Shown piece after piece: positions 2,546 to 23,123 of a stretch of DNA of 64,000 nt. This stretch comes from an uncultured Nocardioides sp. (GTDB lineage: Bacteria > Actinomycetota > Actinomycetes > Propionibacteriales > Nocardioidaceae). Where the stretch lies: assembly GCA_964487275.1 (NCBI GenBank), contig CAZAQE010000028.1:262-64261 (forward strand), in the 5' to 3' direction. Every line of letters begins with the position of its first letter. The first letter of the stretch is position 1. A model generated the notes under the pieces. It saw only the letters and a list, made by a program, of their open reading frames with translations. It was not told where the DNA came from and did not search any database. Made by a program: the position numbers and the translations under genes.

Positions 2546-4114
2546 ATGATCTCGGCCACTCCGGAACCCACCTCACGCCGCACCCTGCTGCGCGGCGCCG
2601 TCCTGACCGCCGGTGCTGCGGCCGGCCTGCACGCGTCCCGCTCCTCGGCAGCCCCCCTCCTCGTGCGCCGCGACCGGCCGCTGCTGCCCCTGGGCGTGCA
2701 GTCCGGTGACGTCCGCGCGAGGTCCGCCGTGCTCTGGGCGAAGGCGGACCGGCCCGCCCGCCTGGTCGCCGAGGTCAGCCGCGACGCCTCCTTCCGGGGC
2801 GCCCGCAGGATCCCCGGCCCGGTCGTCACCCCGTCGACCGACCTCACCGGACGCTTCGAGCTGCGCGGGCTGCCGACGGGCACCGACCTCCACTACCGGA
2901 TCAGCGCCGTCGACCTGGACGACGACCGCGCCACGAGCGAGCCCACCGTCGGCCGTCTGCGCACGGCCCCGGGCCATGGCGACGACGTCCGCTTCCTGTG
3001 GTCCGGCGACATCGCCGGTCAGGGCTGGGGCGTGAACCCGGCGTACGGCGGCTTCCGGATCGCCGAGGCGATGCGCGCCCGCGACGCCGACTTCTTCCTC
3101 TGCAGCGGCGACAACGTGTACGCCGACGGACCGGTCCAGTCCTCCGTCGCGCTGCCGGACGGATCGACCTGGACCAACCTGGTCATCCCGGAGAAGACCA
3201 AGGTGGCCGAGACGCTGACGGAGTACCGCGGCCAGTACCGCTACAACCTGATGGCCGACAACTGGCGCGCCTTCCTCGCCGAGACGGCGCAGGTCGTGCA
3301 GTGGGACGACCACGAGGTGACGAACAACTGGTACCCCGGCGAGATCCTCGAGGACGCCCGCTACACCGAGAAGCGGGTCGACGTGCTCGCCGCCCGGGCC
3401 GCCCGGGCCTTCCACGAGTACACCCCGATCTCCGGCATCTCCCCGGACGCCGAGGGCCGCGTCTACCGGGTCCTCCCCTACGGCCCCCACCTCGACCTCT
3501 TCGTGCTCGACATGCGCACGCACAAGGACCCGAACACGGCGAACGACGAGACGACCACCGACGGCGGGGTGCTCGGCCGGCGCCAGACGGCGTGGCTGAT
3601 CGACGGCCTGCGCCGCTCGCGCGCCACCTGGAAGGTGATCGCCGCGGACCTGCCGCTCGGGCTCGTCGTACCGGACGGGATGTTCCAGGAGGGCCTCGCG
3701 CAGGGAGACCCCGGTGCCCCGCTGGGCCGTGAGGCCGACATCGCCGAGGTGCTCACCGCGCTGTCGCGGGCCGGGATCCGCAACCACGTGTGGCTGACCG
3801 CCGACGTCCACTACACGGCGGCCCACCACTACTCCCCCGACCGGGCGGCCTACCAGGACTTCGACCCGTTCTGGGAGTTCGTGTCGGGGCCGCTCAACGC
3901 GGGCGGCTTCGGGCCCAACCGCCTGGACGGCACCTTCGGTCCGGTCGCGGACTTCGTCGCCGCGCCGCCCGTCGCCAACGCGTCGCCGGCCGCCGGCCAC
4001 CAGTACTTCGGCGAGGTCGAGGTCGACGGCGCCACCGGCCGGCTGACCGTGACCCTGCGCGACGTCGAGGGCGCGGCGCTCTACACGCGGACGCTGGACC
4101 CGGCGGCCCGCTGA
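2546..4114 (+). CDS. phoD: alkaline phosphatase D family (PhoD), Tat-secreted
   Basis: 522-aa ORF. Twin-arginine signal TSRRTLLRGAVLTAGAAA. PhoD-like metallophosphatase motifs (FLWSGD, CSGDNVYADG, WDDHEV). Confidence 0.9.
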   Translation: MISATPEPTSRRTLLRGAVLTAGAAAGLHASRSSAAPLLVRRDRPLLPLGVQSGDVRARSAVLWAKADRPARLVAEVSRDASFRGARRIPGPVVTPSTDLTGRFELRGLPTGTDLHYRISAVDLDDDRATSEPTVGRLRTAPGHGDDVRFLWSGDIAGQGWGVNPAYGGFRIAEAMRARDADFFLCSGDNVYADGPVQSSVALPDGSTWTNLVIPEKTKVAETLTEYRGQYRYNLMADNWRAFLAETAQVVQWDDHEVTNNWYPGEILEDARYTEKRVDVLAARAARAFHEYTPISGISPDAEGRVYRVLPYGPHLDLFVLDMRTHKDPNTANDETTTDGGVLGRRQTAWLIDGLRRSRATWKVIAADLPLGLVVPDGMFQEGLAQGDPGAPLGREADIAEVLTALSRAGIRNHVWLTADVHYTAAHHYSPDRAAYQDFDPFWEFVSGPLNAGGFGPNRLDGTFGPVADFVAAPPVANASPAAGHQYFGEVEVDGATGRLTVTLRDVEGAALYTRTLDPAAR

Positions 4115-4136
4115 GCCTCGTGCACTACGCCATCAT

Positions 4137-5066
4137 GTGGGCGTGATTCCCACCCGGATCCCCCACGGCCGTACCGCCCGACGTGTCGAGTGGGCACACC
4201 TGCCGCCCGCCGTGCGCGACGCGGTGGAGACCCGACTGGGCGCACCGGTCGAGGAGGCGGTGTCACAGGGCGCCGGCTTCACACCGGGCTTCGCCTCGGT
4301 GCTCACCTGCACCGACGGCTCCCGGCACTTCGTGAAGGCCGCCTCGGTCCGCGCGCAGCGGATGTTCGCCGACTCCTACCGCGAGGAGGCCCGCAAGCTC
4401 GGCGCCCTGCCGCCCGGCACCCCGGCACCGCGGCTGCTGTGGACCGACGAGGTCGCCGACTGGTTCCTGCTCGGGATCGAGTACGTCGACGGACGGGCCC
4501 CGCTGCGCCCCTGGACCGACGCCGACCTGGGCGTCGCCTCGGCCATGGCCGTGGAGATGACCAGGTTGCTCACCCCCGCCCCGGCCGGCCTCGGCCGGGC
4601 CACCGAGGAGTTCGCGTCGTGGCCGGCGCTCTGGGACCGGCTGGACCACCCGCGGGCGGCGGAGATCGGGGCGCTGGCCGCCCGCTACGCCGAGGTCGTG
4701 GACGGCGACACGCTCGTGCACACCGACATCCGCGACGACAACATCCTCGTGCTGGCGGAGGGCCGCGCCGTGCTCTGCGACTGGAACTGGCCGGTCGTCG
4801 GCGCCGCCTGGCTCGACTCGCTGTTCCTGCTGATCGGCCCGCGCGGCGACGGCCTGGACGTCGAGGGGCACATCGCGGAGCACCCGCTGCTGTCCGGCGT
4901 CCCGACCGAGCACGTCGACGTCGTACTCGCGCTCGTGCTGGGCTACTTCGCCGCCTCGGCCAACGAGCCCGTCCCGCCGACCTCGCCGTACGTCCGGGCC
5001 GCGCAGGCGTGGCAGCGCGACGTGGTCGACCAGTGGCTGGCGCAGCGGCGTGGTTGGAGCGACTGA
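4137..5066 (+). CDS. aminoglycoside/choline-kinase-like phosphotransferase family protein
   Basis: 309-aa ORF with an APH-type catalytic loop HTDIRDDNIL and CDWNW. Confidence 0.75.
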   Translation: MGVIPTRIPHGRTARRVEWAHLPPAVRDAVETRLGAPVEEAVSQGAGFTPGFASVLTCTDGSRHFVKAASVRAQRMFADSYREEARKLGALPPGTPAPRLLWTDEVADWFLLGIEYVDGRAPLRPWTDADLGVASAMAVEMTRLLTPAPAGLGRATEEFASWPALWDRLDHPRAAEIGALAARYAEVVDGDTLVHTDIRDDNILVLAEGRAVLCDWNWPVVGAAWLDSLFLLIGPRGDGLDVEGHIAEHPLLSGVPTEHVDVVLALVLGYFAASANEPVPPTSPYVRAAQAWQRDVVDQWLAQRRGWSD

Positions 5067-5075
5067 GCCCTCCGC

Positions 5076-5561
5076 TCAGGCGCGGCCGATCGCCTCGGGG
5101 TCGATGACGACGAACTGCGGATCGTCGGGGTGCACGTGTACGTCGAGGATCGTGTCGACCTGGATCCGCGGGATCGCGAGCTGGGAGACCAGCTCGTCGA
5201 CCGTGACCCGGTAGGGCTCGCCGGTCTCCGGCGTCACCTCGAGGGTGAACACGACGTAGGGATCCTGGTTGAGGTGTCCGCGGACGCGCGCGTTCGCGAT
5301 CCGGGCCGTGGTCCGGATGCCGTCCTCCATCGCCCGGCGCCGGTGGGCGTTGCGGGCCCGGACCTGGCGGATCTTGAAGAAGGCGAAGACCGCCAGGCCG
5401 ACGCCGGCCACGGCGAAGGCGTAGCCGGCATAGGTGCCGGCGTGCTTGCCCCCGTCCCGGGTCGCGCCCATGACGACCAACGTCCAGAAGGCGATGGTCG
5501 GCACGATCATGATCACGCCGACGGGGAACTGCGGCTGTGAGGGGGGCGTCACGGCCGCCAT
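5076..5561 (-). CDS. hypothetical membrane protein (161 aa)
   Basis: Trimmed from track ORF 5076..5747 to the ATG at 5561 (MAAVTPPSQ...). Two N-terminal hydrophobic helices, then a soluble domain. Confidence 0.5.
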   Translation of the reverse strand: MAAVTPPSQPQFPVGVIMIVPTIAFWTLVVMGATRDGGKHAGTYAGYAFAVAGVGLAVFAFFKIRQVRARNAHRRRAMEDGIRTTARIANARVRGHLNQDPYVVFTLEVTPETGEPYRVTVDELVSQLAIPRIQVDTILDVHVHPDDPQFVVIDPEAIGRA

Positions 5562-5753
5562 CCCAGCAGGTCGGGGCCGTGCTGGCAACGATCCCGGCCG
5601 GTTGGCGATTTGGGACCACTGTTCGCCCGCTGTTAGCCTTGCTGGTCGCGTCTCCCGCGTGCCTGCGCCTGCCCTCGTCGGTCGGCCGGCTCCCGCGGAT
5701 CCGCGCTCCGGACCAGTCCAGACATCCACCCGAACACGTAGAGGCAATCACCC

Positions 5754-6014
5754 GTGGCGAACATCAAGAGCCAGATCAAGCGCAACAAGCAGAACGAGAA
5801 GCGCCACGAGCGCAACAAGGCCGTCAAGTCGGGCCTGAAGACCGCGATCCGCAAGTTCCGCGAGGCCGCCGAGGCCGGCGACAAGGACAGCGCGGTCGCG
5901 CTGGCCCAGGACGCCACGAAGAAGCTCGACAAGGCTGCTTCGAAGGGCGTCATCCACAAGAACCAGGCCGCGAACCGCAAGTCGTCGATCGCCAAGCAGG
6001 CCGCCTCTCTCTGA
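5754..6014 (+). CDS. rpsT: 30S ribosomal protein S20
   Basis: 86 aa, [26 protein letters not shown]..., a canonical S20 N-terminus. Confidence 0.97.
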
Positions 6015-6055
6015 GTTTCCCCTGCTCTGGCTCCGGTCCGGAGCCATCACGTCAA

Positions 6056-6083
6056 GGGAGTCCCCGAACGGGGGCTCCCTTTC
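6056..6083. terminator. hairpin plus T-tract between convergent rpsT and holA
   Basis: GGGAGTCCCC-GAAC-GGGGGCTCCC (10-bp stem with one G:U) followed by TTTCG. Confidence 0.55.
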
Positions 6084-6089
6084 GTGATA

Positions 6090-7061
6090 TCAGGAGCGAC
6101 GGAGCGCGGTGATGGTGAGCACCAGCCGCTCCAGCGCGTACGACGCGTCGCTGGCCGCGCCCTTGATGTCGGCGTCGGCCTGGGCGACCGCGCGGATCGC
6201 GCGGGACAGGCCCGCCTCCGACCAGCCGCGGGCCTGGTCGCGCAGCGAGCGCAGCTTCCACGGCGGCACACCCACCTCGCGAGCGAGGTCGGCATCGCGC
6301 ATCCCGCGCGGGGCGCTCACCAGCCGGGCCAGGCCGCGGGCGCTGCCCGCGAAGGCGGAGGTGATCAGCACGGCCGCAGTGCCGGCGTCGAGCGCCCAGC
6401 GGAGCTCCTCGAGCGCAACCTGGCCGCGCCCGGCGAACGCCGCGTCGGCGACCGCGAAGGACTTCGCCTCGGCGCGGCCACCGAAGTAGCGCTTGACTTG
6501 GGACTCCCCGATCCGCTCCCCCGGGAAGTCGTTGGCGAGCTGGCTCGCCGCACCGGCCAGTGAGCGCAGGTCGCGACCGATCGCCTCGATGAGGACGTCG
6601 GCGGCGTCGCGGTCGAGCGTGGCGCCGTGGCGTCGTACCTCGTTGGCGACGAAGGCGGGGAAGTCGGAGGGCTTCAGCTCCTCGGACTTGTGCTCCGTGA
6701 CGGGCGGGAGCTTGCGGAGCTTGGTGAGCACCCCGCTGCCCTTCTGCCCTCCGCCGTGGACCAGGACGAGGGCGACGTCGTCGGCCGGGGCACCGGCGTA
6801 GGCGAGGAGGCCGTCGACGGACTCGTCGGGCAGGTTCTCCAGGCCGCGGACGACGACGCAGCGCACGGCCGAGAACAGCGACGGGGCCGCCATCTCGCCG
6901 AGCGAGGCGAGCGTGAGGTCGGCCGCCGCGGCGTCGGAGAACTCTGCCTCGGCGTCGTGCTCACGCACGGCGGCCTTGACGTCGTCGACGGTGCGGGCGC
7001 CGAGGAACTCCTCCTTGCCGGTGACCAGGATGACCCGTCCCAACACGTCAGCGGCCCGCAT
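6090..7061 (-). CDS. holA: DNA polymerase III subunit delta
   Basis: Track ORF 6090..7097 trimmed to the ATG at 7061 (MRAADVLGRVILVTGKEEFL). Length, composition and position downstream of comEC are typical of actinobacterial holA. Confidence 0.88.
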   Translation of the reverse strand: MRAADVLGRVILVTGKEEFLGARTVDDVKAAVREHDAEAEFSDAAAADLTLASLGEMAAPSLFSAVRCVVVRGLENLPDESVDGLLAYAGAPADDVALVLVHGGGQKGSGVLTKLRKLPPVTEHKSEELKPSDFPAFVANEVRRHGATLDRDAADVLIEAIGRDLRSLAGAASQLANDFPGERIGESQVKRYFGGRAEAKSFAVADAAFAGRGQVALEELRWALDAGTAAVLITSAFAGSARGLARLVSAPRGMRDADLAREVGVPPWKLRSLRDQARGWSEAGLSRAIRAVAQADADIKGAASDASYALERLVLTITALRRS

Positions 7062-7106
7062 GGGAGACACCTTCCCACACGCTCCCGACACGAGCACCGG
7101 CGGCGG

Positions 7107-8696
7107 TCACCGGGCCACGACCCTCGGTCCGGCTCCCCCGGCGACGACCGCGACATCGCCCTCCTCGTCGGTCCGGTGCACCTCGGCGCCGGCAGCACGG
7201 AGGCCGTCGAGCAGGTCGGGTGCCGGGTGGCCGTAGTCGTTGTCGGCACCCACCGACACCAGCGCGAGCTCCGGGCGCAGCGAGGTGAGCCAGCGCTCGT
7301 CCTGGTGACGGCTGCCATGGTGGGGCACCTTGAGGACGTCGACGTCGAGGCCCGGGAGCAAGCGGGCGAGTTCGGCCTGGCCGGGTGGCTCGATGTCGCC
7401 GGTGAGGAGCAGCCGGAGCCCGGCGACGTCGACCACGAGCACCACGCTGGCATCGTTGGCGGAGCTGCCGTCGCCCGCCCCCGGCACCGGCACGGGGACG
7501 TCCGGGTGCACGACCTGGATCGTGGCCGTGCCGACCCTGCGGGTCGCGCCGTACGACGCCCTCCGCACCGGCACCCCCGCCCGGGCCGCCACTTCGCGGA
7601 CCTCGTCCACCGCCGCCGGCGGGTCCAGCACCGAGGTCACCTCGACGGCACCGACGCGGCGTCCACGCACCACCCCGGCCAGGCCGTCGACGTGGTCGGC
7701 GTGGAAGTGGGTCAGCACGACGAGCGGGACCTGCTCGACACCGAGCCGGTCGAGACAGCCGTCGACGGCCTCCGGATCGGGGCCCGCGTCGACCACGACC
7801 GCGGCTCCCGGACCGACCGACACCGCGAGCGCGTCGCCCTGCCCGACGTCGCAGGCCACCAGCACCCAGCCCGCCGGCGGCCACCCGAAGGAAGGCGTCG
7901 ACCAGATCCGGCCCGGCACCCCCAGGACGACCAGCAGGAGCAGCACCGCGAGCGAGACACCCCACGCCCGGTGGCGCACGATCCGGGGCAGGACGACGGC
8001 GACCGCGACGCAGAGCCCGACGAGCAGCAGCACGGCCAGCGGCCCGGTACCCCATGCGACCGCCGCTCCGGGCAGGTCCGCACCACGCTCGGCGACCGCG
8101 ATGATCCACGCGACGCACCACGCCGCGCCGGTGCCGACCACCCGGCCGGCAGCCGGGAGCACCAGCCCGACCAGCCCGCCGAGCAGGCCGAGCACGGTCG
8201 CCGGTCCGACCGCCGGACCCGCGAGGAGGTTGGCCAGCACCGCGACCAGGCTGACCTGGCCCGACAGCACCGCCACGACCGGCGTGCAGGCCAGCTGCGC
8301 GGCCGTCGGCACCGCCACCGCCTCGGCGAGGCCGCGGGGCATCCACCGGGAGAGCGCCTCGGCCAAGGGCGGGCCCAGCAGCACGATCCCTCCGGTCGCG
8401 AGGACCGAGAGCGCGAAGCCGGCCGACGTGGCGAGCGCGGGATCGACCAGCACCAGCACGACCAGCGCGACACCGAGCGCCCGCAGGCCGCGACGGCGCC
8501 CGTCCGGCCCGAAGGCGAACAGCCCGACCGTGCCCATCGCCGCCGCTCGCAGCACGCTCGGCTCCGTGCGGGCGAGCAGGACGAACCCGATGATCCCGGC
8601 GAGGCCGACGAGCACCAGCCAGCGGCCGCGGACGCCGACCGCCCGGGCAGCCAGCAGCAGGGCCCCGACGACGAGGGTCAGGTTGGTGCCGGACAC
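7107..8696 (-). CDS. comEC: ComEC/Rec2 3' fragment (competence membrane domain plus metallo-beta-lactamase domain), separated from its 5' part by the insertion
   Basis: 529 aa with many TM helices and MBL motif THFHADHVDG...VPHHGS. The frame stays open upstream to 8720 (CGLTHLTAVSGTNL), so the GTG at 8696 is only a nominal start. Confidence 0.9.
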   Translation of the reverse strand: MSGTNLTLVVGALLLAARAVGVRGRWLVLVGLAGIIGFVLLARTEPSVLRAAAMGTVGLFAFGPDGRRRGLRALGVALVVLVLVDPALATSAGFALSVLATGGIVLLGPPLAEALSRWMPRGLAEAVAVPTAAQLACTPVVAVLSGQVSLVAVLANLLAGPAVGPATVLGLLGGLVGLVLPAAGRVVGTGAAWCVAWIIAVAERGADLPGAAVAWGTGPLAVLLLVGLCVAVAVVLPRIVRHRAWGVSLAVLLLLVVLGVPGRIWSTPSFGWPPAGWVLVACDVGQGDALAVSVGPGAAVVVDAGPDPEAVDGCLDRLGVEQVPLVVLTHFHADHVDGLAGVVRGRRVGAVEVTSVLDPPAAVDEVREVAARAGVPVRRASYGATRRVGTATIQVVHPDVPVPVPGAGDGSSANDASVVLVVDVAGLRLLLTGDIEPPGQAELARLLPGLDVDVLKVPHHGSRHQDERWLTSLRPELALVSVGADNDYGHPAPDLLDGLRAAGAEVHRTDEEGDVAVVAGGAGPRVVAR

Positions 8697-8742: not shown

Positions 8743-10206
8743 ATGCTAAACGTGACCGAGGCCCTTGCGCGGGAGTACCTGCGAGTAAGTACCGACAAGA
8801 GTGGCCGCGGCGCGTCTGTCGCTCAGCAACACGACGAGAATCAGCGTGCCGCCGAGAGCCGCGGTTGGCGCCTGCTGCCGCCCTATAGCGAGCCTGAGGC
8901 GGTCTCGGCGTCGCGTTACTCCCGCAAGGCCCGTGAGGCGTTTGGCGACTTGCTCGAGGACATTGAATCAGGGTCGTTCGGGGCCGACGTCCTCGTTCTG
9001 TGGGAGGCGTCGCGGGGTTCCCGTCGCACGGGCGAGTGGGTCGACCTGATCGACGTCTGCGCCAGTCGCGACGTAAGGATTCACGTCACCTCCCACGGTC
9101 GGACCTACGACCCGACGAACCCCCGCGACCGCCGGACCCTTCTCGAGGACGCCGTTGATAGTGAGTACGAGTCCGCAAAACTCAGCGGCCGAGTCAGTCG
9201 CGCACTCGCCGCCAACGCGAGTGCTGGCCGTCCGCACGGGCAGATCCCCTACGGATACCGCCGCGTGTACGACGATCGCTCCGGTGCGCTGATCCGCCAG
9301 GAGCCCGATCCGGCAACCGCGCCGAACATTGCCGAGTTGTTCGCCCGCGTCCGTGCCGGCGACTCATTGCGCAGCATCGAGCGGGACTGGGCTGCGCGGG
9401 GCATCGTGAACAAGTCCGGTCGCCCCTTCGGTTCTGCGCACCTTCGCTCACTACTCGACGTTCGGGCCTACGCCGGTGACCGAGTGCACGGGAACCAAGT
9501 GCATGCCGGCGACTGGGAGCCCATCGTCGAGCGCGACACTTGGCAAGCCGTGCGAGCGATCCTCAGCGACCCGGCCCGGCGGACCAACCGGCCGGGCCGC
9601 GGCATCTACAAGGTGTCCATGATCGCCCGCTGCGGCGTCTGCGAAGGCCCGATGGCGGGAGACGCCAAAGTCGACGGACGCCGCCGAACCGAGCCCGTTT
9701 ACAGATGCCGCAACAACCACGTCACAGTTCCCCTCGCCAGCCTGGACCAACATGTCGAAGAAGTCGTCAGCGCGTACCTATCCCGCCCCGAAATCCGGAC
9801 GGCACTGTCAGCCGCCGCGGTGGAAAGCGGCGAGCTCCAAGCAGCACGGAACCGCGTGGCGAGACTCAAGGGCGAGTTAGACGACCTCTACGAGCGTGGC
9901 GCAAGCGGACAGATCTCGCCGGCAGGCGTGGCAGCGATGGAACCGGGCCTCCTAGGCCGCCTGAGCGGCGCTCAGGCCGACCTCGAGGCGCTACAGACCC
10001 CGAGTGCGCTCGTCGGCATCCTCGGCCGCGAGAGCGGTTCTGGAACGTCGCTGGGGGACCTGACCGTCGAGCGTCTTCGCGCAATCTACGACCTTGTCTG
10101 CACCCCTGACCTCCTCGGAGTTCCGCACGTCAACAGGTCATCCCGACGAGGGCCGAAACAACCCCCGGTTCGCGACCGAGTCGAGTGGCGACGCAGCTCG
10201 GACTGA
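8743..10206 (+). CDS. large serine recombinase (phage-type serine integrase)
   Basis: 487 aa. Resolvase catalytic N-domain (YLRVSTDKSG, VLVLWEASRGSRR), recombinase domain, zinc ribbon (CGVCEGPM...YRCRNNH) and a C-terminal coiled coil. Starts about 20 bp from the attL core. Confidence 0.95.
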   Translation: MLNVTEALAREYLRVSTDKSGRGASVAQQHDENQRAAESRGWRLLPPYSEPEAVSASRYSRKAREAFGDLLEDIESGSFGADVLVLWEASRGSRRTGEWVDLIDVCASRDVRIHVTSHGRTYDPTNPRDRRTLLEDAVDSEYESAKLSGRVSRALAANASAGRPHGQIPYGYRRVYDDRSGALIRQEPDPATAPNIAELFARVRAGDSLRSIERDWAARGIVNKSGRPFGSAHLRSLLDVRAYAGDRVHGNQVHAGDWEPIVERDTWQAVRAILSDPARRTNRPGRGIYKVSMIARCGVCEGPMAGDAKVDGRRRTEPVYRCRNNHVTVPLASLDQHVEEVVSAYLSRPEIRTALSAAAVESGELQAARNRVARLKGELDDLYERGASGQISPAGVAAMEPGLLGRLSGAQADLEALQTPSALVGILGRESGSGTSLGDLTVERLRAIYDLVCTPDLLGVPHVNRSSRRGPKQPPVRDRVEWRRSSD

Positions 10207-14107: not shown

Positions 14108-14203
14108 CTCCCCTCGGACCCCGAATCGAGGACTGTGGGTGAGGGCGCTCCGAGGTGCGGCACGCATTCTCGCTCGTTTTCCGATGACCATGAAGGAGGC
14201 CCT

Positions 14204-14671
14204 GTGGCCGCCGAATCAGCCCCTGAGGGCCACCCTGAGCGCCTTGCGCCCGCGGGTCTGAGTGCGCGGGCCGGCGAGTTCTGGGCGCGCATCCAGGACG
14301 AGTTTGAGCCGTCCGACGCCGAGACTGAGTTGCTGGTTGAGGTGGTGCAGACGATCACCGAGATCGACTCGTTGAAGGCCGCCCTGACTGCTGACGGTGT
14401 CTCGGTGCAGGGCTCAATGGGTCAGAAGCGCGTTCACCCGGCAGTCAATGAGATCCGACAGCACCGGATGGCATTGGCTCGGCTCCTCAAGCAGCTCGAT
14501 CTCAGCGACGAGGAGCCGGAGACGGAGGCGACCAAGGCGGCTCGCCGTGCCGCTCAGGCGCGCTGGTCTCAGTCCCGTGGCCGAGACCGGGCGCGGATTG
14601 CTGAGAACGGCCCTGCGTTACCCGAAGATCCGGAGGTAGCGGCCCTCAAGAAGTGGATGCAGGGCGCATGA
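14204..14671 (+). CDS. phage terminase small subunit, P27-family-like
   Basis: GTG at 14204 follows GAAGGAGG. Segment GLSARAGEFWARIQDEFEPSDAETELLVEVVQ...ADGVSVQGSMGQKRVHPAVNEIRQHRMALARLLKQLDL follows the P27 TerS layout. Confidence 0.6.
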   Translation: MAAESAPEGHPERLAPAGLSARAGEFWARIQDEFEPSDAETELLVEVVQTITEIDSLKAALTADGVSVQGSMGQKRVHPAVNEIRQHRMALARLLKQLDLSDEEPETEATKAARRAAQARWSQSRGRDRARIAENGPALPEDPEVAALKKWMQGA

Positions 14672-15196: not shown

Positions 15197-18006
15197 TGGC
15201 TGTTCGTCGCGAGCGGGTCATTCTCGACCTCCAGGACGATTTCAGTTCGGGCATGGTTCGGGCTGCTGGTGCGACGGCGATGCTTCGTCGGGAGCTGCGT
15301 GACCTCGATGGGATGTCGGTCCGGATCACGCAGACGTTCAACGACAACACTCGTGGCGTCGATCAGTTCTCGCGGTCGTTGGATCAGTCGGGGCGGTCGA
15401 TCGACCGTTATTCGGGGCGCCTGGCGGCGTTGGCGCAGGCGGGTCTCGTCTTCGGTCCGGGCGCTATTCCGGTCACCGCGGTCGCTACCGCTGGTGTCGC
15501 GGGCCTTGCGTCTCAGCTTGGTTTCGCGGCGATCGGCATGGGGTCGCTGGTGGTCGCGACTCGTGGCGTGGGTGACGCCCTCAAGGCGCTGAATGAGGCC
15601 GCTCTGGAGCCCACTGCGGACAACATCGAGAAGGCGCGCGTCGCGATGGCCGAGCTCGGGCCCGAGGCGCAGCAGTTCGTTCTCCGCTTCCAGGAGCTCC
15701 GCCCGGTTCTCGGTGACCTCAGGGACGCTGCTGCCGCTGGCTGGTTCCCTGGTCTCACTGAAGCGCTCGACCATTTCGAGCTCGTGGCGCCCCGCGTCGC
15801 GTCCCTCTTTGAGGCACTGGGCCGCGCAGGAGGCCAGCTCGTGGCCGAGGGTGCTGAGGCGCTGGCGGGTGGCGAGTGGGCAGAGTTCTTGTCGTTCGTC
15901 GAGCGCGAGGGCCCTGAGTCGCTCGAGCAGCTCGGTCGTTCAGTGGGCAATGTCGTACACGGGCTGGCCGAGCTCTGGATGGCGTTCGCCCCTCTCAATG
16001 ACGACTTCTCGACGTGGCTACTCAACGCCAGCAGGGACTTCGACGCCTGGGCCGCAGGGCTCGCGCAGACGCAAGGGTTCGAGGACTTCATCGAGTACGT
16101 TCGCCGCGTCGGTCCGCAGGTCGGCCAGACGCTCGGCGCCATCGCGGAATCGGTCGTGTCCATCGTGGAGGCTGCGTCCCCGCTCGGCGGACCTGTCCTC
16201 GAGGCGTTCGAGACCATCGCCGACCTCGTCCGGGCGATCGCGGAGTCCCCGGTGGGGCCGAAGATCTTCACGATGGCCGCCGCCTTCTTGGTCCTGAACA
16301 AGACGCTTGCGGTTACCGCCGGACTGCTGGCGCGGACGGGTTTCGTCGGTGCAGCGGGTGCGCTGCGCAACGCCGGTCCGGCGGCTGGGACTGGTGCTGG
16401 CCCCGGTGCGCCGGGTGTCCTTCCCATCGCTTCGCGAGTGACGGCGACACGTACCGCCTTCGGTCAGCTCCGGACCGACCTGACCGCACTCCGCAGCGCG
16501 ACGATGGCGCAGCGCAACGCCAGTACGTCGCTGATCGCGGCCCAGGCGCGCGTGAACACAACAATGCGGCAGTACGGCTCGACCGTCGCTAAGGCCGGCG
16601 CGGGCGCTGGTGCCTTCGCCGTTGCCACTGGCGCGATAGGCGGCGGCCTTGGGCTGCAGAACACCGCCATGCTCGGTCTGGTTGGCACGATGGCTGGCCC
16701 GTGGGGCGCTGCCGTCGGTGCGGGCATCGGGTTGACGATCGACCTCGCAAACGCGACCGGCCAGTACGCCGACGCGCAGGAGCGAGCGAACGCGGCGGTG
16801 AAGTCGAACAACGTCGAGCAGATCACTGCGGCGATCGCCGAGCAGCGCAAGATCCTCGCCGGCGCGATGGACTCCGACAAGGTCACCGGAGTTGGGGACT
16901 TCTTCTCCGACGTCGGCCGCGGCCTGACCGGTGGCGGTGGCGCAGACGTGAAGGCTCGCGCCAAGAAGCAGATCGCCGAGCTCGAGGATGCTCTCCGTGG
17001 CGTGAGGAAGGAGACCCTTCTGGTCGCCCGGCAGGAGCAGATCACCCTCTGGGCCGAGGCGGTCAGCGAGGAGTTCTTAAGCCTGGGCAGGGCGATCGAC
17101 AAGCCGACGCTGAGCCTCGACCGGCTCATGAAGCGGATGGAGAACCAGGGCCGCGCAGCGAGGGACATGGGGAAGAACCTCCGAGAAGCCCTCGCGAACG
17201 GTGCTGATCCTGAGGCGTTGCAGCGGCTCATCGATGAGCTGGGCCCGCAGGCAGGCCTTGTCCTCGAGCAACTGGCGAAGGGAGGCGAAGATGCCGCCGC
17301 GCGCTTCAACAGGGGGTGGGGCAGGACTCAGAACCTTCTGGCGATCCTCGAGAAGGCGATTGAGGATGTGGGCGCTGCGGTCAACCGGCTGCCGGACGGA
17401 AAGATCATCAAGATCGACGCGGACACCCGCCGCGCCGCCCGAGCGATCGACCGCATTCGCGAGGAGGCCAAGTCCGTAGCGAAGGACTGGCAGGTCCGCT
17501 TCATCGTCACTCAGACCAACCGGATCAACAAGCCGGAGATCAACGGGCCGGGGTCGCCTCAGAACTACGCCACCGGGGGCTACACGGGCTGGGGTGGCAA
17601 GTATCAGCCGGCGGGCATCGTCCACCGCGGCGAGGTTGTGATCCCGCAGGAACTGGTCGCTCGCGACCGCGACCTGCTTCGAAACCGCTACGGCCACCTT
17701 CCCGGCATGGAGCAACTGCACTCGGGAGGTATGGCGGGATACACGCAGGCCGAGGCAGTTGCTCGATCGCGCGCAGCTCTGGCGGCCTCTGCCCAAGCAG
17801 TTCGGATGTCGTCTAGTAGTGCGCCGGCAGTGAACGTCACGACCCAGCTCTCCCGCGACGACCTTGACTACCTGGCCGAACGGCTCGAGCGGGCTCGTCC
17901 GATGTACGGCGACGTGCACATGGCGCCGCACGACTACAGCGAGTTCCGCAGGCAGATGGCCGATGACCGTGCGCGGATGCAGCGCGGGGGGTTCGGGCGT
18001 CGCTGA
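15196..18006 (+). CDS. phage tail tape measure protein
   Basis: 936 aa. Long Ala/Gly-rich helical protein with internal Gly-rich hydrophobic segments. The C-terminal motif YATGGYTGWGGKYQPAGIVHRGEVVIPQ is common in siphovirus tape measures. RBS GAAGGAGG lies 7 nt upstream. Confidence 0.8.
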   Translation: MAVRRERVILDLQDDFSSGMVRAAGATAMLRRELRDLDGMSVRITQTFNDNTRGVDQFSRSLDQSGRSIDRYSGRLAALAQAGLVFGPGAIPVTAVATAGVAGLASQLGFAAIGMGSLVVATRGVGDALKALNEAALEPTADNIEKARVAMAELGPEAQQFVLRFQELRPVLGDLRDAAAAGWFPGLTEALDHFELVAPRVASLFEALGRAGGQLVAEGAEALAGGEWAEFLSFVEREGPESLEQLGRSVGNVVHGLAELWMAFAPLNDDFSTWLLNASRDFDAWAAGLAQTQGFEDFIEYVRRVGPQVGQTLGAIAESVVSIVEAASPLGGPVLEAFETIADLVRAIAESPVGPKIFTMAAAFLVLNKTLAVTAGLLARTGFVGAAGALRNAGPAAGTGAGPGAPGVLPIASRVTATRTAFGQLRTDLTALRSATMAQRNASTSLIAAQARVNTTMRQYGSTVAKAGAGAGAFAVATGAIGGGLGLQNTAMLGLVGTMAGPWGAAVGAGIGLTIDLANATGQYADAQERANAAVKSNNVEQITAAIAEQRKILAGAMDSDKVTGVGDFFSDVGRGLTGGGGADVKARAKKQIAELEDALRGVRKETLLVARQEQITLWAEAVSEEFLSLGRAIDKPTLSLDRLMKRMENQGRAARDMGKNLREALANGADPEALQRLIDELGPQAGLVLEQLAKGGEDAAARFNRGWGRTQNLLAILEKAIEDVGAAVNRLPDGKIIKIDADTRRAARAIDRIREEAKSVAKDWQVRFIVTQTNRINKPEINGPGSPQNYATGGYTGWGGKYQPAGIVHRGEVVIPQELVARDRDLLRNRYGHLPGMEQLHSGGMAGYTQAEAVARSRAALAASAQAVRMSSSSAPAVNVTTQLSRDDLDYLAERLERARPMYGDVHMAPHDYSEFRRQMADDRARMQRGGFGRR

Positions 18007-18142
18007 CTAGTGTCAAGCAGTACGACTACAACGACCTTCTGGGCGAGATGGAGCATGTCCGGCGGTCTTGACAGGTACGGGCGTGCGGCGGCCAAAGCGG
18101 TGCGAGCGTAGTTCTGTCCCGGTAATCTGCGCCCATGGTCGG

Positions 18143-18183
18143 CACCCATCCCTCTCCTCGAGCGTTGCGCTGAGGGATGGGTG
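18143..18183 (+). terminator. 12-bp-stem hairpin downstream of the tape-measure gene
   Basis: CACCCATCCCTC-N17-GAGGGATGGGTG. No U-tract. Confidence 0.35.
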
Positions 18184-18325
18184 CGCACAACGCCGCGAAG
18201 GCGCATAGCGCCGTCTGCCAGGCGGTCCGATCGTGGCGCTGATCGCTCAGCCGCCAGGGGTTCGTGCCACCCGCGACGGCGGGAAGTGGAAGTTCGCGCG
18301 TGGGATCACTGGCTCAAACTTCGTG

Positions 18326-18706
18326 ATGAACGACTTCGCAACCCTCGAAGCCCGGCTGGGCGCGCGGGTTCTCGAAGTGGTTAAGGCGGAGTTGTTTTTC
18401 AAGATGCGGCAAGCCGAGTTCGGGCGGCTCGCTTACGGGCGCGGACCCGAGTTTGACGTAGAGCAGATGGCCGCCGCCCCTGACGTGCTGGAGCTTCGCT
18501 TGTCCGATCGAAGCGGCGACGACGAGAACCTCCTGCACATGCGGTTCTTCTTTTCGGAGCCACTCGATCTTCCCGGTTCACTGGTCGGCCTCGGCCTGCT
18601 CTGGAAGCGACCGGGTGGGATCGATCAGGAGATGCAGACCCAGACGGCCCTGCGTGCCTCGCTTCGGCTGCAGGAGTACACGCAACGAGAGGACTACGGA
18701 TTGTGA
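18326..18706 (+). CDS. RelE/HigB-like (Gp49/DUF891-type) toxin candidate (126 aa)
   Basis: Track ORF 18233..18706; the ATG at 18326 is preferred. Segment VLELRLSDRSGDDENLLHMRFFFSEP...LVGLGLLWKRPGG...Q..A resembles the ELR...YR..YF...KK pattern of Gp49-like toxins. An XRE gene follows. Confidence 0.45.
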   Translation: MNDFATLEARLGARVLEVVKAELFFKMRQAEFGRLAYGRGPEFDVEQMAAAPDVLELRLSDRSGDDENLLHMRFFFSEPLDLPGSLVGLGLLWKRPGGIDQEMQTQTALRASLRLQEYTQREDYGL

Positions 18707-18713
18707 GATTCCC

Positions 18714-18729
18714 GTCAACCGACGTTGAC
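18714..18729 (+). promoter_or_regulatory. palindrome GTCAAC-CGAC-GTTGAC in an A/T-richer spacer upstream of the XRE gene; candidate operator
   Basis: Perfect 6-bp inverted repeat. A second palindrome TCATATGA lies at 18751..18758. AGGAGG is at 18761. Confidence 0.3.
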
Positions 18730-18772
18730 CTGTTGGCTATGATCAATAAGTCATATGACAAGGAGGTGTGAC

Positions 18773-19162
18773 ATGGAGCTAGAGGAGCTTCTCGGGATCG
18801 ATCTGCGAAACCCGCTGCAGATGCGGGCTAAGCGGATGGTGGAGGCCGACGAGAACTTTCTTGACGAGCTTGTCCGCCTGCGAAAGGCGAAGGGCCTGTC
18901 TCAAGAGGTCGTCGCCGACAGGATGGAAATCTCCCAGAGCGCGGTCGCGCGCATCGAGTCTGGAGAGCGCGATCCTCGTCTTTCGACCCTTCGGCGCTAT
19001 GCGATGGCGGTCGGCGCCGTCTACTCCCACACTGTCGACGATGACGAGCCGCGGATCCTGAAGACTCCCATCGGGGGCGAGCATCGCTCGATGGAAGACC
19101 CTTGGCCCGCAGTCGAGCGGCCGAAGATTCACCGAGGCAAGGTGCCGAGCGCAGGTGCCTGA
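18773..19162 (+). CDS. XRE-family HTH transcriptional regulator / antitoxin candidate (129 aa)
   Basis: ATG at 18773 lies 6 nt after AGGAGG. HTH_3 motif LRKAKGLSQEVVADRMEISQSAVARIESGERDPRLSTLRRYAMAVG. Confidence 0.8.
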   Translation: MELEELLGIDLRNPLQMRAKRMVEADENFLDELVRLRKAKGLSQEVVADRMEISQSAVARIESGERDPRLSTLRRYAMAVGAVYSHTVDDDEPRILKTPIGGEHRSMEDPWPAVERPKIHRGKVPSAGA

Positions 19163-19634
19163 TCCGCGCTTTGGAGAAGATTGGCCCGATGCGTTCATCG
19201 GTGGATACGCGATCAGCCGACTACTCCGCCGTTCGGACCACGAGAACGACGAGCCCGGCATGGCCTGGAAGATCTATCCGGCCATCTTCGAGTTCGACGG
19301 GGACGATCCGGCCAACCGGCCGACCTTGGCCATCGTCGGGGACTTCACGCTGTGGGCTGGCTCGGAGTGGGCCGGCGTCCGAGCGCATGCCAACCTCTTC
19401 GTCAGGGATGTCGAGCCACTGACTGACGATGAGTGGCAGGCTGCCAATGAACTCACCGTGCAGCATGTCGATTGGTTGGAGCGCGGCCTGTACGACTTCG
19501 TCGCTCAGGCCATGCGCGCGATGATGGCGAGCGGGTCAGGCCTCACTGTTCCCAGGAGCACGCCAGACTATGAACTCCTTCTCGTGGACATAGACGAGGT
19601 CGTGAACGACAGCGGCTTCCGGGATGCCGACTAG
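19155..19634 (+). CDS. hypothetical protein (159 aa)
   Basis: GTG start overlaps the XRE gene by 8 nt. No recognisable domain. Confidence 0.5.
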   Translation: MPDPRFGEDWPDAFIGGYAISRLLRRSDHENDEPGMAWKIYPAIFEFDGDDPANRPTLAIVGDFTLWAGSEWAGVRAHANLFVRDVEPLTDDEWQAANELTVQHVDWLERGLYDFVAQAMRAMMASGSGLTVPRSTPDYELLLVDIDEVVNDSGFRDAD

Positions 19635-19640
19635 GCTGGC

Positions 19641-19952
19641 ATGACCGGGCGAGGCGGCTACAAGCAGACCGACGGAATCGTCGTCGCCCGCCTCTGCGGC
19701 ACGTCACGTCAACTAGCAACCGGGCACGCCGAGGATGACGAAGCGATCGCCGAACTCCAGGCAATCACGACCCGCGTCGAGCTGTTGAGCCAGGCTGCCG
19801 GCGTCTGCATGGCCCAGCACCGTTACAGCGCCGCGGTCCATCCGTTCGCAAGTCGGTCGGCGGACCTGTTGTTCGCTGCTGGCGCTGACCTCGAGTTGGC
19901 CGAGAAGCAGGCTGCACTGTCGCTCGCCTCATTGAATGGCAACCGCCCCTGA
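19641..19952 (+). CDS. hypothetical protein (103 aa)
   Basis: Starts 6 nt after the previous stop. A hairpin (GCCCCTCGG ... CCGAGGGGC, about 19957..19997) follows. Confidence 0.45.
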   Translation: MTGRGGYKQTDGIVVARLCGTSRQLATGHAEDDEAIAELQAITTRVELLSQAAGVCMAQHRYSAAVHPFASRSADLLFAAGADLELAEKQAALSLASLNGNRP

Positions 19953-20098
19953 GTGCCCCTCGGACGCTTGGTTGTCTCTCCGCCCACCCGAGGGGCTGTC
20001 CTTTCTCGGGGACGCGACGACGCTACGACGAGCAGCGACCCAAGAGGAACAGTTCGGATCCTCTGATTTGCGTCGGAGTCCGGGCCTAGGGTGCCGGC

Positions 20099-20551
20099 AT
20101 GAAGTCCTCACGTGCTCTGGTGGCGGCCCTGGTTGCGATCGGGTTGCTGGCTGTGGGGCTTGCTGCCGCCTTGGGGATCGTCCTCGCAAACGATGATTCG
20201 GACGACTCGCCCAGCAGGGCTAGCGACGTGTCGTCTGAGACGTCGGAGTCTCCGATGTCGCCTCTCCGGCCTGCGTGGCTCGCGTGCCGCGACTTTGACG
20301 AGGACGGCACGGTGGCGCTGACGGACGAAGACCAGTCGATCGTCATCAGCACGGGTCAGTACGGATCGGGTGTCGCGGCGGACTGCATCCTCGACCAACT
20401 TGAGGTCTCGGAGGCCATCCGGTCACAGGTGGACCACACCACGGCGATGATGGGCGTCCAGACTGCGGATCAGGATGGCCTCGCCTACCAGTGGTCGTAT
20501 CACCCCGACAACGGCCTGAATATGACCATCACGGTGGACGGATCCGAGTAG
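20099..20551 (+). CDS. membrane-anchored/secreted hypothetical protein (150 aa)
   Basis: N-terminal signal/anchor MKSSRALVAALVAIGLLAVGLAAALGIVLA, an acidic Ser-rich linker, then a globular domain with 2 Cys. Confidence 0.6.
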   Translation: MKSSRALVAALVAIGLLAVGLAAALGIVLANDDSDDSPSRASDVSSETSESPMSPLRPAWLACRDFDEDGTVALTDEDQSIVISTGQYGSGVAADCILDQLEVSEAIRSQVDHTTAMMGVQTADQDGLAYQWSYHPDNGLNMTITVDGSE

Positions 20552-20566
20552 CCGGACCCCAGGACG

Positions 20567-20791
20567 CTAGTTGTTTGGTCGCCGCCGAGCGCTCGCCGCC
20601 CTAGCAGTTCGCGCAGGCGTGACCGCCTGCTTCGCGATGATCTCCTCGACCATCCCGTCGGTGAACCGCCACACCGACCGCTTCGGCTTCACGCACGGCC
20701 AGCCGCCACCAGGGCGACACTTCATACGGACGTCGTCGACCGTGATTCCCAGAAGGTCGGTCAACTCGACGTCGGTGAGCAGCCTGTTCAT
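20567..20791 (-). CDS. excisionase/AlpA-type HTH protein (74 aa)
   Basis: Track ORF trimmed to the ATG at 20791 (MNRLLTDVELTDLLGITVDDV...VWRFTDGMVEEII). Paralogue of the adjacent gene. Confidence 0.6.
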   Translation of the reverse strand: MNRLLTDVELTDLLGITVDDVRMKCRPGGGWPCVKPKRSVWRFTDGMVEEIIAKQAVTPARTARAASARRRPNN

Positions 20792-22364: not shown

Positions 22365-22395
22365 CTAGTGCGCTTCATCATGGGTCAGGCCGGTC
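22365..22395. repeat. attR junction: element-side half-site CTAGTGCG (22365..22372) plus shared core TGGGTCAG (22381..22388)
   Basis: The core is identical to 8707..8714 and in the same comEC codon phase. Confidence 0.75.
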
Positions 22396-23123
22396 GTCCG
22401 GAAGTCCGCCTCGACCTCGGCGGGCAGGCCGGCGTCGTCGCCGTCGACGAGGGCCGGGACGAGCCCGGCCTGCGCGGGCGGCCGGTGGGCCACGGAGTCG
22501 CGGATAGCGGACCGCACGGCTCCCGCCGCGCGCCACCACGGGTCGGGACCACGGATCCGGACCGGCGACCGGCCGGAGAGCAGCAGGGCCCCGTCCTGCG
22601 GGCTGTCCGACGGCGCGAGGCGACCCTCGGCGAGCACCCGCTCCCCCAGCTCCACCCCGGCCCACGCCGGGTCGCCGAGGACGACGACGGACCCGCCGAG
22701 GCTCCGGCGCTCACCGCGGGCGGTTGCCTCCTCCACCCGCAGCCGTACGACGACCCGGTCGCCCCACTGCCCGTCCACCCTCCGCGGGTCGGACACCACG
22801 GTGCCGACCAGGTCGGCGGTGGCCCGGCCGGCCGCCCACGTGCTCAGCGGGCTCGTCGCCACCGCCTCCAGCCTCAGCAGGGCTCCGGCGAGCACCGCCG
22901 CGCCGACGACGACGGACGCGAGGACCAGCCGCCGCCCGGGTGACCCGCGGCCGGCGCGGCCGGTCCAGGCGAGGGCGCCGGCCACGGCCAGCAACGCGAC
23001 CAGCACCGGCACGGCCAGACCGCCGCTGCGGGTCGCCGCGATCCCGCCCAGCCACGCCGAGCAGCCCAGCACCGGCATCCGGAAGTCGTGCCCGGGCCGG
23101 GCGTGGGGCGCCGGCTCAGCCAC
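22365..23123 (-). CDS. comEC: ComEC 5' fragment (N-terminal TM plus DUF4131-like region), truncated four codons into the insertion
   Basis: 252 aa ending ...EADFRTTGLTH followed by element-encoded DEAH and a stop. It continues seamlessly into 8706..7107 if the element is removed. Confidence 0.85.
   Translation of the reverse strand: MAEPAPHARPGHDFRMPVLGCSAWLGGIAATRSGGLAVPVLVALLAVAGALAWTGRAGRGSPGRRLVLASVVVGAAVLAGALLRLEAVATSPLSTWAAGRATADLVGTVVSDPRRVDGQWGDRVVVRLRVEEATARGERRSLGGSVVVLGDPAWAGVELGERVLAEGRLAPSDSPQDGALLLSGRSPVRIRGPDPWWRAAGAVRSAIRDSVAHRPPAQAGLVPALVDGDDAGLPAEVEADFRTTGLTHDEAH

Follow-up and report, generated by a model that had tools for sequence, protein, structure and literature searches.

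A divergent HigBAC-type toxin–antitoxin–chaperone module proposed in the variable cargo slot of a satellite-like element from Nocardioides-related Actinomycetota

Toxin–antitoxin–chaperone (TAC) systems are an established class of chaperone-gated toxin–antitoxin (TA) switches, and two examples from E. coli sense phage structural proteins (bioRxiv 10.1101/2024.02.24.581848; PMC11618068). Their defining architecture comprises a toxin, an antitoxin with a C-terminal extension and a SecB-like chaperone (PMC5105189, PMC6377645). In M. tuberculosis, these parts are HigB1 (Rv1955), HigA1 (Rv1956) and SecB-TA (Rv1957), encoded in the order toxin, XRE antitoxin, chaperone. HigBAC of E. coli NT1F31 is a prophage-encoded anti-phage TAC, which is set off by the major tail protein of lambda as it competes with the chaperone-addiction element (ChAD) for the chaperone HigC (bioRxiv 10.1101/2024.02.24.581848). 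CmdTAC (PD-T4-9) and MqsRAC of E. coli defend against phages as well, and a P2-like prophage carries CmdTAC in its hypervariable cargo region (Vassallo et al. 2022, PMC9519451; PMC11618068). Here we describe a locus in a stretch of 64,000 nucleotides of contig CAZAQE010000028.1 from an uncultured Nocardioides sp. (the window), where three consecutive genes at 18233..19634, named genes 1 to 3, probably constitute a HigBAC-type TAC module. An earlier note on this DNA had delimited a four-gene cassette at 18326..19952, the fourth gene being referred to below as gene 4, and knew of no named system that matched; the tripartite TAC of the HigBAC type does (PMC5105189, PMC6377645, bioRxiv 10.1101/2024.02.24.581848).

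The assignment is built on the structure of the genes, the conservation of the trio across loci, the distant relationship of gene 1 to HigB1, the SecB-like fold predicted for gene 3, and the setting as cargo. A Gp49/HigB1-like toxin candidate, followed by a HigA-like XRE protein with a C-terminal tail and by a coupled protein of predicted SecB fold, amounts to the TAC architecture, and the gene order is that of M. tuberculosis. The closest characterised relative of gene 1 and the best structural match of gene 3 are matching parts of that same system, and genes 1 and 2 are relatives of the sole M. tuberculosis TA pair that depends on SecB. Both modules come from Actinomycetota, and in both antitoxins an XRE helix-turn-helix (HTH) is followed by some 40 aa of C-terminal tail. 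On the other hand, gene 1 and HigB1 share only about 23% identity, and the gene-1 product, in which the helical region and the β2–β3 loop contain insertions, exceeds HigB1 by 32 aa. The tail of gene 2 has one invariant Trp-Pro, whereas the M. tuberculosis ChAD has two EVPT(L/W) repeats (PMC5105189). Finally, the window module lies on a mobile satellite-like element, while the M. tuberculosis system belongs to the chromosome core.

E. coli HigBAC, compared by description, consists of a HigB-type toxin, a HigA with an aromatic-dependent ChAD and a SecB-like HigC; the locus has candidates for these parts and, like it, a mobile carrier, and the defence-island-like context of relatives of the window module fits an anti-phage role. 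The E. coli ChAD is longer, with 96 aa and four aromatic motifs compared to 42 aa and one invariant Trp in the window. CmdTAC and MqsRAC present the same tripartite logic, a SecB-like chaperone as gate and a variable cargo slot, but their toxins are an ADP-ribosyltransferase or MqsR, whereas the window encodes a candidate for a Gp49/HigB-like RNase fold. Two-gene Gp49/HigB–HigA pairs, such as S. pneumoniae HigBA (6AF3) and V. cholerae HigBA2, also encode the toxin first, and it is to HigA structures that the HTH of the window is closest. Their toxins are ribosome-dependent mRNases of the RelE fold. These pairs carry neither a third gene nor a chaperone-addiction tail; the window has a third gene and a candidate for such a tail. 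The toxin-then-antitoxin order of genes 1 and 2 agrees with the Gp49 family.

Gene 1 had been taken to begin at ATG 18326. Its true start is GTG 18233, 31 codons further upstream. All relatives conserve the additional codons in frame; even in L006, for which gene calling had settled on the inner ATG, the upstream segment is kept. Compared with three relatives, synonymous-only and amino-acid changes in this segment number 12/5, 15/4 and 11/4. Moreover, distant family members align to the profile from position 1–5 on, and the invariant residues P7, P8, R11, G16, G17 and W19 of the family fall in the upstream segment. The conservation in frame, the mostly synonymous changes and the profile coverage indicate that the 31 codons are translated, which gives a product of 157 aa.

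An exhaustive profile search at E ≤ 0.001 showed that the gene-1 family comprises at least 162 representative clusters (50% identity), with proteins of mostly 150–175 aa; the family profile and alignment (A7) were made of 97 sequences. The ELRL...MRFFF...WKR pattern on which the HigB/Gp49-like call of the earlier note was based is present and corresponds to the conserved core of the family, whose consensus VLELR...R(L/F)YF(S/T)EP...K.PG..G..EQ..HA..A..R pointed to Gp49-type HigB toxins. The call itself was borne out by profile alignment: the 97-sequence profile aligned by hhalign to M. tuberculosis HigB1 with a probability of 90.6%, an E value of 1.3e-6 and a score of 39.7 over 83 columns, beginning at the N-terminal GGxWxF strand. 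As a control, 200 shuffled HigB1 sequences scored 10.9 on average (standard deviation 2.1, maximum 17.7) and reversed HigB1 scored 9.6, so that the score of HigB1 is about 13 standard deviations above the shuffles. The HigB1 sequence used was checked against PDB 7AWK_A and was identical save for the crystallised K95A mutation, and HigB1 is itself a member of PF05973 (Gp49) with 67.5 bits in a Pfam scan.

Alanine mutation of HigB1 residues E66, R68, R77 and K95 reduces or abolishes toxicity (PMC9098466). In a global alignment, these positions correspond to E87, R89, R104 and K125 of gene 1, all four of which are kept. Across the family alignment, R104 is conserved in 97/97 sequences, E87 in 94/97, K125 in 93/97 and R89 in 93/97 (R in 81, K in 12). 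Gene 1 is thus regarded as a candidate for a remote Gp49/HigB1-like toxin of the RelE fold, the toxicity of which we infer from these sequence relationships, and by analogy its product is most likely a ribosome-dependent mRNA endonuclease.

The XRE HTH recognised in gene 2 by the earlier note is confirmed by Pfam (PF01381, E 2.7e-13; PF13560, E 3.9e-12), and the best PDB sequence matches are the antitoxins HigA (6AF3) and HigA2 (7EWC). Over 54 aa of the HTH, gene 2 is 48% identical to what we take to be the HigA1 sequence, which was verified only in part, by primer sequences in PMC5105189; this is a lead and not evidence. Residues 1–87 comprise an N-terminal segment and the HTH, which closes with RDPRLSTLRRYA, and they are strongly conserved, even where gene 1 is only 35–40% identical. 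In the tail that follows, neither length nor sequence is constant, but a DDE...G.H...W-P pattern is retained, in which W111-P112 is invariant. By analogy with described TAC antitoxins, the tail is a candidate ChAD element.

Gene 2 lies directly 3' of the toxin gene at a spacing of 66 nt, and this interval contains a conserved block. A TATGAT hexamer resembling a -10 element (18738–18743) lies inside an imperfect inverted repeat, ATGAT-N6-GTCAT (18739–18754), which reads ATGAC-N6-GTCAT in L006 and L008 and has one mismatch in the window. A Shine–Dalgarno sequence, AGGAGG, follows at 18761–18766. The block was not called by a consensus promoter scan; from its sequence, it is a plausible internal promoter/operator.

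Gene 3 begins with GTG 19155 and overlaps the TGA of gene 2 (19160–19162) by 8 nt, which couples the two genes in translation; both this overlap and the 6-nt gap to the ATG of gene 4 (19641) are as the earlier note had them. The long form of gene 3 is backed by the invariant W10-P11-D12 inside the extra segment, and the first strand of the structural model (residues 13–27), predicted with good confidence, is within the 35 residues unique to this form. Related sequences are scarce, with two matches only in a search of 5.8 billion proteins. The AlphaFold2 model of the protein, with a predicted local distance difference test (pLDDT) score of 81 and a predicted template modelling score of 0.74, shows a four-stranded antiparallel sheet followed by a helix of 30 residues and a short helix.

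When this model was searched against the PDB with Foldseek, the four top matches were chains of 5MTW (E 1.8e-4 to 4.2e-4, probability 1.0), the SecB-like TAC chaperone Rv1957 of M. tuberculosis with the ChAD peptide of HigA1 bound. They were followed by SecB from three species (1OZB, 1FX3, 1QYN), those of H. influenzae and E. coli included. SecB or SecB-TA chains made up the whole of the top 10 matches and 15 of the top 17, the rest being 2O2A, a streptococcal protein. Against BFVD, the top matches were phage proteins named SecB, together with uncharacterised proteins of Corynebacterium and Gordonia phages. Gene 3, which had been noted as an effector without recognisable domain, is on the basis of the model a candidate SecB-like chaperone.

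Close relatives of gene 1 (65–78% identity) are rare and come from a single Nocardioides genome, a handful of contigs from metagenomes and one scaffold from a virome. The full trio of gene 1, XRE gene and gene 3 is present in all four other loci with such a relative (L001/L002, counted as one place, L006, L008 and L018); in L007, gene 1 and the XRE gene are present and the contig ends inside gene 3. The junction between genes 2 and 3 is kept as an overlap of 8, 8, 4, 4 or 1 nt, so that the two genes always overlap or abut. Mean pairwise identity over five loci is 65% for gene 1 and 78.5% for the core of gene 2, while it is 41.7% for the tail of gene 2 and 42.8% for gene 3, which means that the tail and the putative chaperone diverge together. 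Their similar, fast rates fit a co-evolving ChAD–chaperone pair (PMC5105189), and joint divergence would also be expected if the chaperone were the phage-facing sensor. An alignment-based search for further loci returned one already known genome locus, one short metagenome contig and no viral contig.

The three-gene layout is also kept at about 40% gene-1 identity (L010, L011–13). Third genes in these loci (L010, 1532–1975; L011, 4638–5123) encode proteins of 147–161 aa and overlap or abut the XRE gene. The L011 protein contains a LYPYARQ motif, and the likeness of LYPYARQ/LYDFAAQ to a helix region of SecB is regarded as a lead only. In two further sequences (L015/L016, LR134377.1 and LR134407.1, 4001–5243), a distant gene-1 homologue of 166 aa adjoins a tyrosine integrase. 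A protein of 245 aa is encoded 3' of it, the first ~90 residues of which resemble gene 2 (E 6e-5 with the gene-2 profile), and for the other ~150 residues no match was found; a fusion of an antitoxin with a domain the size of a chaperone is a possible explanation.

Relatives of the trio are found in a tyrosine-integrase sister element, in an early region of phage-like character with an M78 peptidase as neighbour and, in L018, next to a SIR2-HerA pair (PADLOC E 4.8e-76 and 5.8e-143). The latter is MT837022.1, a virome scaffold of 10.7 kb from human faeces; its 3441–6403 region, with the trio and then SIR2-HerA, has the appearance of a small defence island from the viral fraction. The earlier note had proposed cargo with a defence flavour in the accessory region of a mobile element, and both the variable slot described below and the SIR2-HerA neighbour in this relative agree with it.

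Several results weigh against a TAC module. No RNA sequencing run containing the sequence was found. Gene 1 had no match among the hidden Markov models of Pfam (E ≤ 1), NCBIfam, PHROGs and PADLOC and did not reach the gathering score of PF05973 (Gp49), none of the 97 family members matched a toxin-related Pfam family at E ≤ 0.01, and PDB searches by sequence and by profile, including the 97-sequence profile, gave chance matches only and no HigB. The AlphaFold2 model of gene 1, made from an alignment of five sequences, is poor (pLDDT 52), and a Foldseek search with it gave no match and was uninformative, although its order of elements (β-α-α-β-β-β-long C-terminal α) is the one given for Gp49-like HigB toxins (PMC9098466) and suits a RelE fold, in which three helices flank a four-stranded sheet. 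HigB1 residues K58, N73 and K99 are without a clearly conserved counterpart in the gene-1 family, and toxin activity could accordingly be low or absent, as with the non-toxic HigB2 and HigB3 of M. tuberculosis (PMC9098466). The tail of gene 2 has a single invariant aromatic residue, and characterised ChADs have one to four. As for gene 3, no match was obtained in Pfam (E ≤ 1, SecB PF02556 included), NCBIfam, PHROGs or PADLOC, PDB searches with the single sequence and with the alignment gave chance matches without SecB, and no similarity to Rv1957 is detectable at the sequence level; template modelling (TM) scores of the model, built from five sequences, to SecB structures are only moderate (0.38–0.55). 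The third genes of L010 and L011 showed nothing significant in comparison with gene 3 by profile search, hhalign and BLASTP. Since the evidence for SecB is all at the level of the fold and the distant third genes are not detectably homologous, genes 1 and 2 could be a two-gene HigBA pair, with gene 3 as a co-transcribed accessory gene (sensor, effector or anti-defence protein) of SecB shape that does not serve the antitoxin as chaperone. We regard this as unlikely, since the ten best PDB fold matches, at probability 1.0, are all SecB or SecB-TA and the top viral matches carry the name SecB, the coupling of gene 3 to the antitoxin gene is conserved across loci, the tail and gene 3 evolve equally fast next to a conserved HTH core, and toxin and antitoxin are related to the SecB-dependent M. 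tuberculosis pair.

The unclear K58, N73 and K99 counterparts and the non-toxic HigB2 and HigB3 would also suit a regulatory cassette, in which gene 2 is a Cro/CI-like repressor of the element and gene 1 a weak HigB2/HigB3-like partner, together steering induction or immunity of the element. No other obvious XRE repressor is found in the element, and the inverted repeat is conserved at the promoter region of gene 2. This account is less probable again, and we hold it to be improbable, because E87, R89, R104 and K125 are nearly invariant in 97 diverse members, as an active site would be, and because the trio is found on unrelated backbones (a serine-recombinase element, a tyrosine-integrase element, a phage early region and a SIR2-HerA island), which is the behaviour of cargo and not of a core regulator; sister elements lack the trio altogether. 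Still further down in probability, to the point of being hardly credible, is the four-gene view of the earlier note, in which 18326..19952 would be a new defence or abortive-infection system of four components, two of them effectors of no known domain. The common orientation, tight spacing and hairpins on either side in the window speak for it. However, genes 1–3 and gene 4 each travel without the other: gene 4 is absent from all other loci with genes 1–3 (L001/L002, L006, L008, L018), and it is found in L003 and L004, at 79–82% identity, 3' of the tape-measure gene and behind unrelated cargo, without genes 1–3. In L004, the preceding gene lies on the opposite strand, so that gene 4 has its own expression signals there, and gene 3 is accounted for as a SecB-like chaperone. 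From these comparisons, gene 4 is not part of the three-gene module.

A different possibility concerns the gene-1 family as a whole. With its at least 162 clusters and an invariant N-terminal PPGxR...GGxW extension, it might be an undescribed Gp49-like toxin clade that repeatedly recruited chaperone or sensor partners, with the SecB-like partner sensing a structural protein of a helper or rival phage; third-position proteins of the window, L010 and L011 types have no detectable mutual similarity, and L015 may encode an antitoxin fusion. There is only a slim chance that this is so, but if true, the toxin switch would be tied to the life cycle of the satellite itself and not to simple host defence.

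For the favoured TAC module, the working scheme is taken from described systems. Gene 1 would encode a Gp49/HigB1-like toxin that cuts mRNA on the ribosome, and gene 2 would neutralise it, probably with autoregulation through the inverted repeat 5' of gene 2. The tail with the invariant Trp-Pro would make the antitoxin unstable by itself, and the gene 3 chaperone would bind this tail and keep the antitoxin functional. E. coli HigBAC and CmdTAC suggest how infection might act on this circuit: the tail and a phage structural protein would compete for the chaperone, and the resulting loss of the antitoxin would leave the toxin to halt translation and abort the infection. Such a circuit would stabilise the host element too. 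Given the position in a variable slot and the settings of the relatives (integrase element, phage-like early region, SIR2-HerA), abortive infection is the role that we favour by analogy, stabilisation of the element being compatible as a second effect. Toxin residues K125 and R104, W111 of the tail and the whole tail are testable targets.

TAC systems are already well described, and the window module, as one of them, is a very divergent HigBAC-type example that brings no new mechanism. It would extend the HigBAC lineage of the M. tuberculosis type to environmental Nocardioides-like Actinomycetota and add a small satellite-like element, with the module in its variable cargo slot, to the known TAC carriers. 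No curated model tried here recognises the toxin or the chaperone, so that the family, with its 162 clusters or more, would go unnoticed by annotation pipelines and by software for finding defence systems. The PADLOC scan (PADLOC-DB v2) that the earlier note had suggested illustrates this: generic HTH models matched gene 2, but no system-specific match was obtained, and genes 1, 3 and 4 gave none.

Table 1. Features of the locus and of the surrounding element in the window.
Feature	Coordinates	Strand	Basis or remark
Gene 1, 157 aa, HigB1/Gp49-like RelE-fold toxin candidate	18233..18706	+	HigB1 active-site counterparts E87, R89, R104, K125
Conserved intergenic block, candidate internal promoter/operator for genes 2–3	18738..18766	+	inference
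Gene 2, 129 aa, HigA-like XRE-HTH antitoxin candidate	18773..19162	+	
Gene 2 C-terminal tail, residues 88–129 (42 aa), candidate ChAD element	19034..19159	+	
Gene 3, 159 aa, SecB-fold chaperone candidate (SecB-TA/HigC-like)	19155..19634	+	GTG start
Gene 4, 103 aa, conserved element backbone gene	19641..19952	+	weak phrog_19199 match
Hairpin, 13-bp arms (100% complementary), 17-nt loop	18142..18184	+	3' of tape-measure-like gene
Hairpin, 9-bp GC-rich arms, 24-nt loop, then T-rich stretch	19955..19996	+	3' of gene 4
Large serine recombinase, left end of element	8743–10206	+	domain scan
Small terminase	14135–14671		phrog_1496, E 5e-14
Tape-measure-like protein, 937 aa	15193–18006		phrog_305, E 1.8e-13
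comEC C-terminal part, Competence/Lactamase_B	7107–8696	-	domain scan
comEC N-terminal part, DUF4131	22365–23123	-	domain scan

The window comes from a wastewater metagenome; its DNA is actinobacterial and rich in GC, and its nearest relatives are Nocardioides. The module lies within a region of lower GC content (0.62–0.68 compared to 0.72–0.76 around it) at about 8.7–22.4 kb, which interrupts comEC (Table 1) and corresponds to an insert of about 13.6 kb between the two comEC parts. Several HTH_17 proteins are encoded in the insert. Since a small terminase and a tape-measure-like protein are present and neither capsid nor portal nor large terminase was recognised in those of its open reading frames that were scanned, the insert looks, from its gene content, like a phage satellite or mini-prophage.

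All four genes of the locus are open on the forward strand and have a coding-like composition, with a GC content of 0.75–0.78 at third codon positions and 0.43–0.52 at second positions. The two flanking hairpins, which had been placed at 18143..18183 and about 19957..19997, were both found again within one or two nucleotides (Table 1). The first is likely the end of the upstream operon and the second is likely a terminator after gene 4. A consensus promoter and terminator scan called nothing, and no Rfam family was found in 17900–20700.

The backbone of the element consists of the tape-measure gene, gene 4, a gene for a protein of 150 aa and the HTH_17 genes, and in the window the variable cargo slot is filled by genes 1–3. 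The context of gene 4 was read from L003 and L004, two relatives whose long contigs belong to this element family. In L003, the slot (6445–7970) holds a CapP-like M78 peptidase (PADLOC capP, E 7.7e-23) and a protein of 346 aa, and in L004 (5660–7971), it holds four unrelated genes, one of them with DUF7689. Both cargoes are candidates for alternative defence or regulatory modules. Gene 4 itself gave no useful match in Pfam, NCBIfam, PADLOC or the PDB, by sequence or by profile. Its family counts 14 relatives, one of which (L005, 364–651) was observed in a true phage-like context beside large tail-fibre-like genes.

Among sequencing runs, the sequence was found only in the source wastewater metagenome and in one groundwater metagenome. 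The 150-aa protein of the backbone is encoded at 20099–20551 (+) and has an N-terminal hydrophobic anchor and an acidic linker. Despite the differing cargo, L003 has it at 90% identity; its gene belongs to the conserved backbone, and it may be a surface or exclusion protein.

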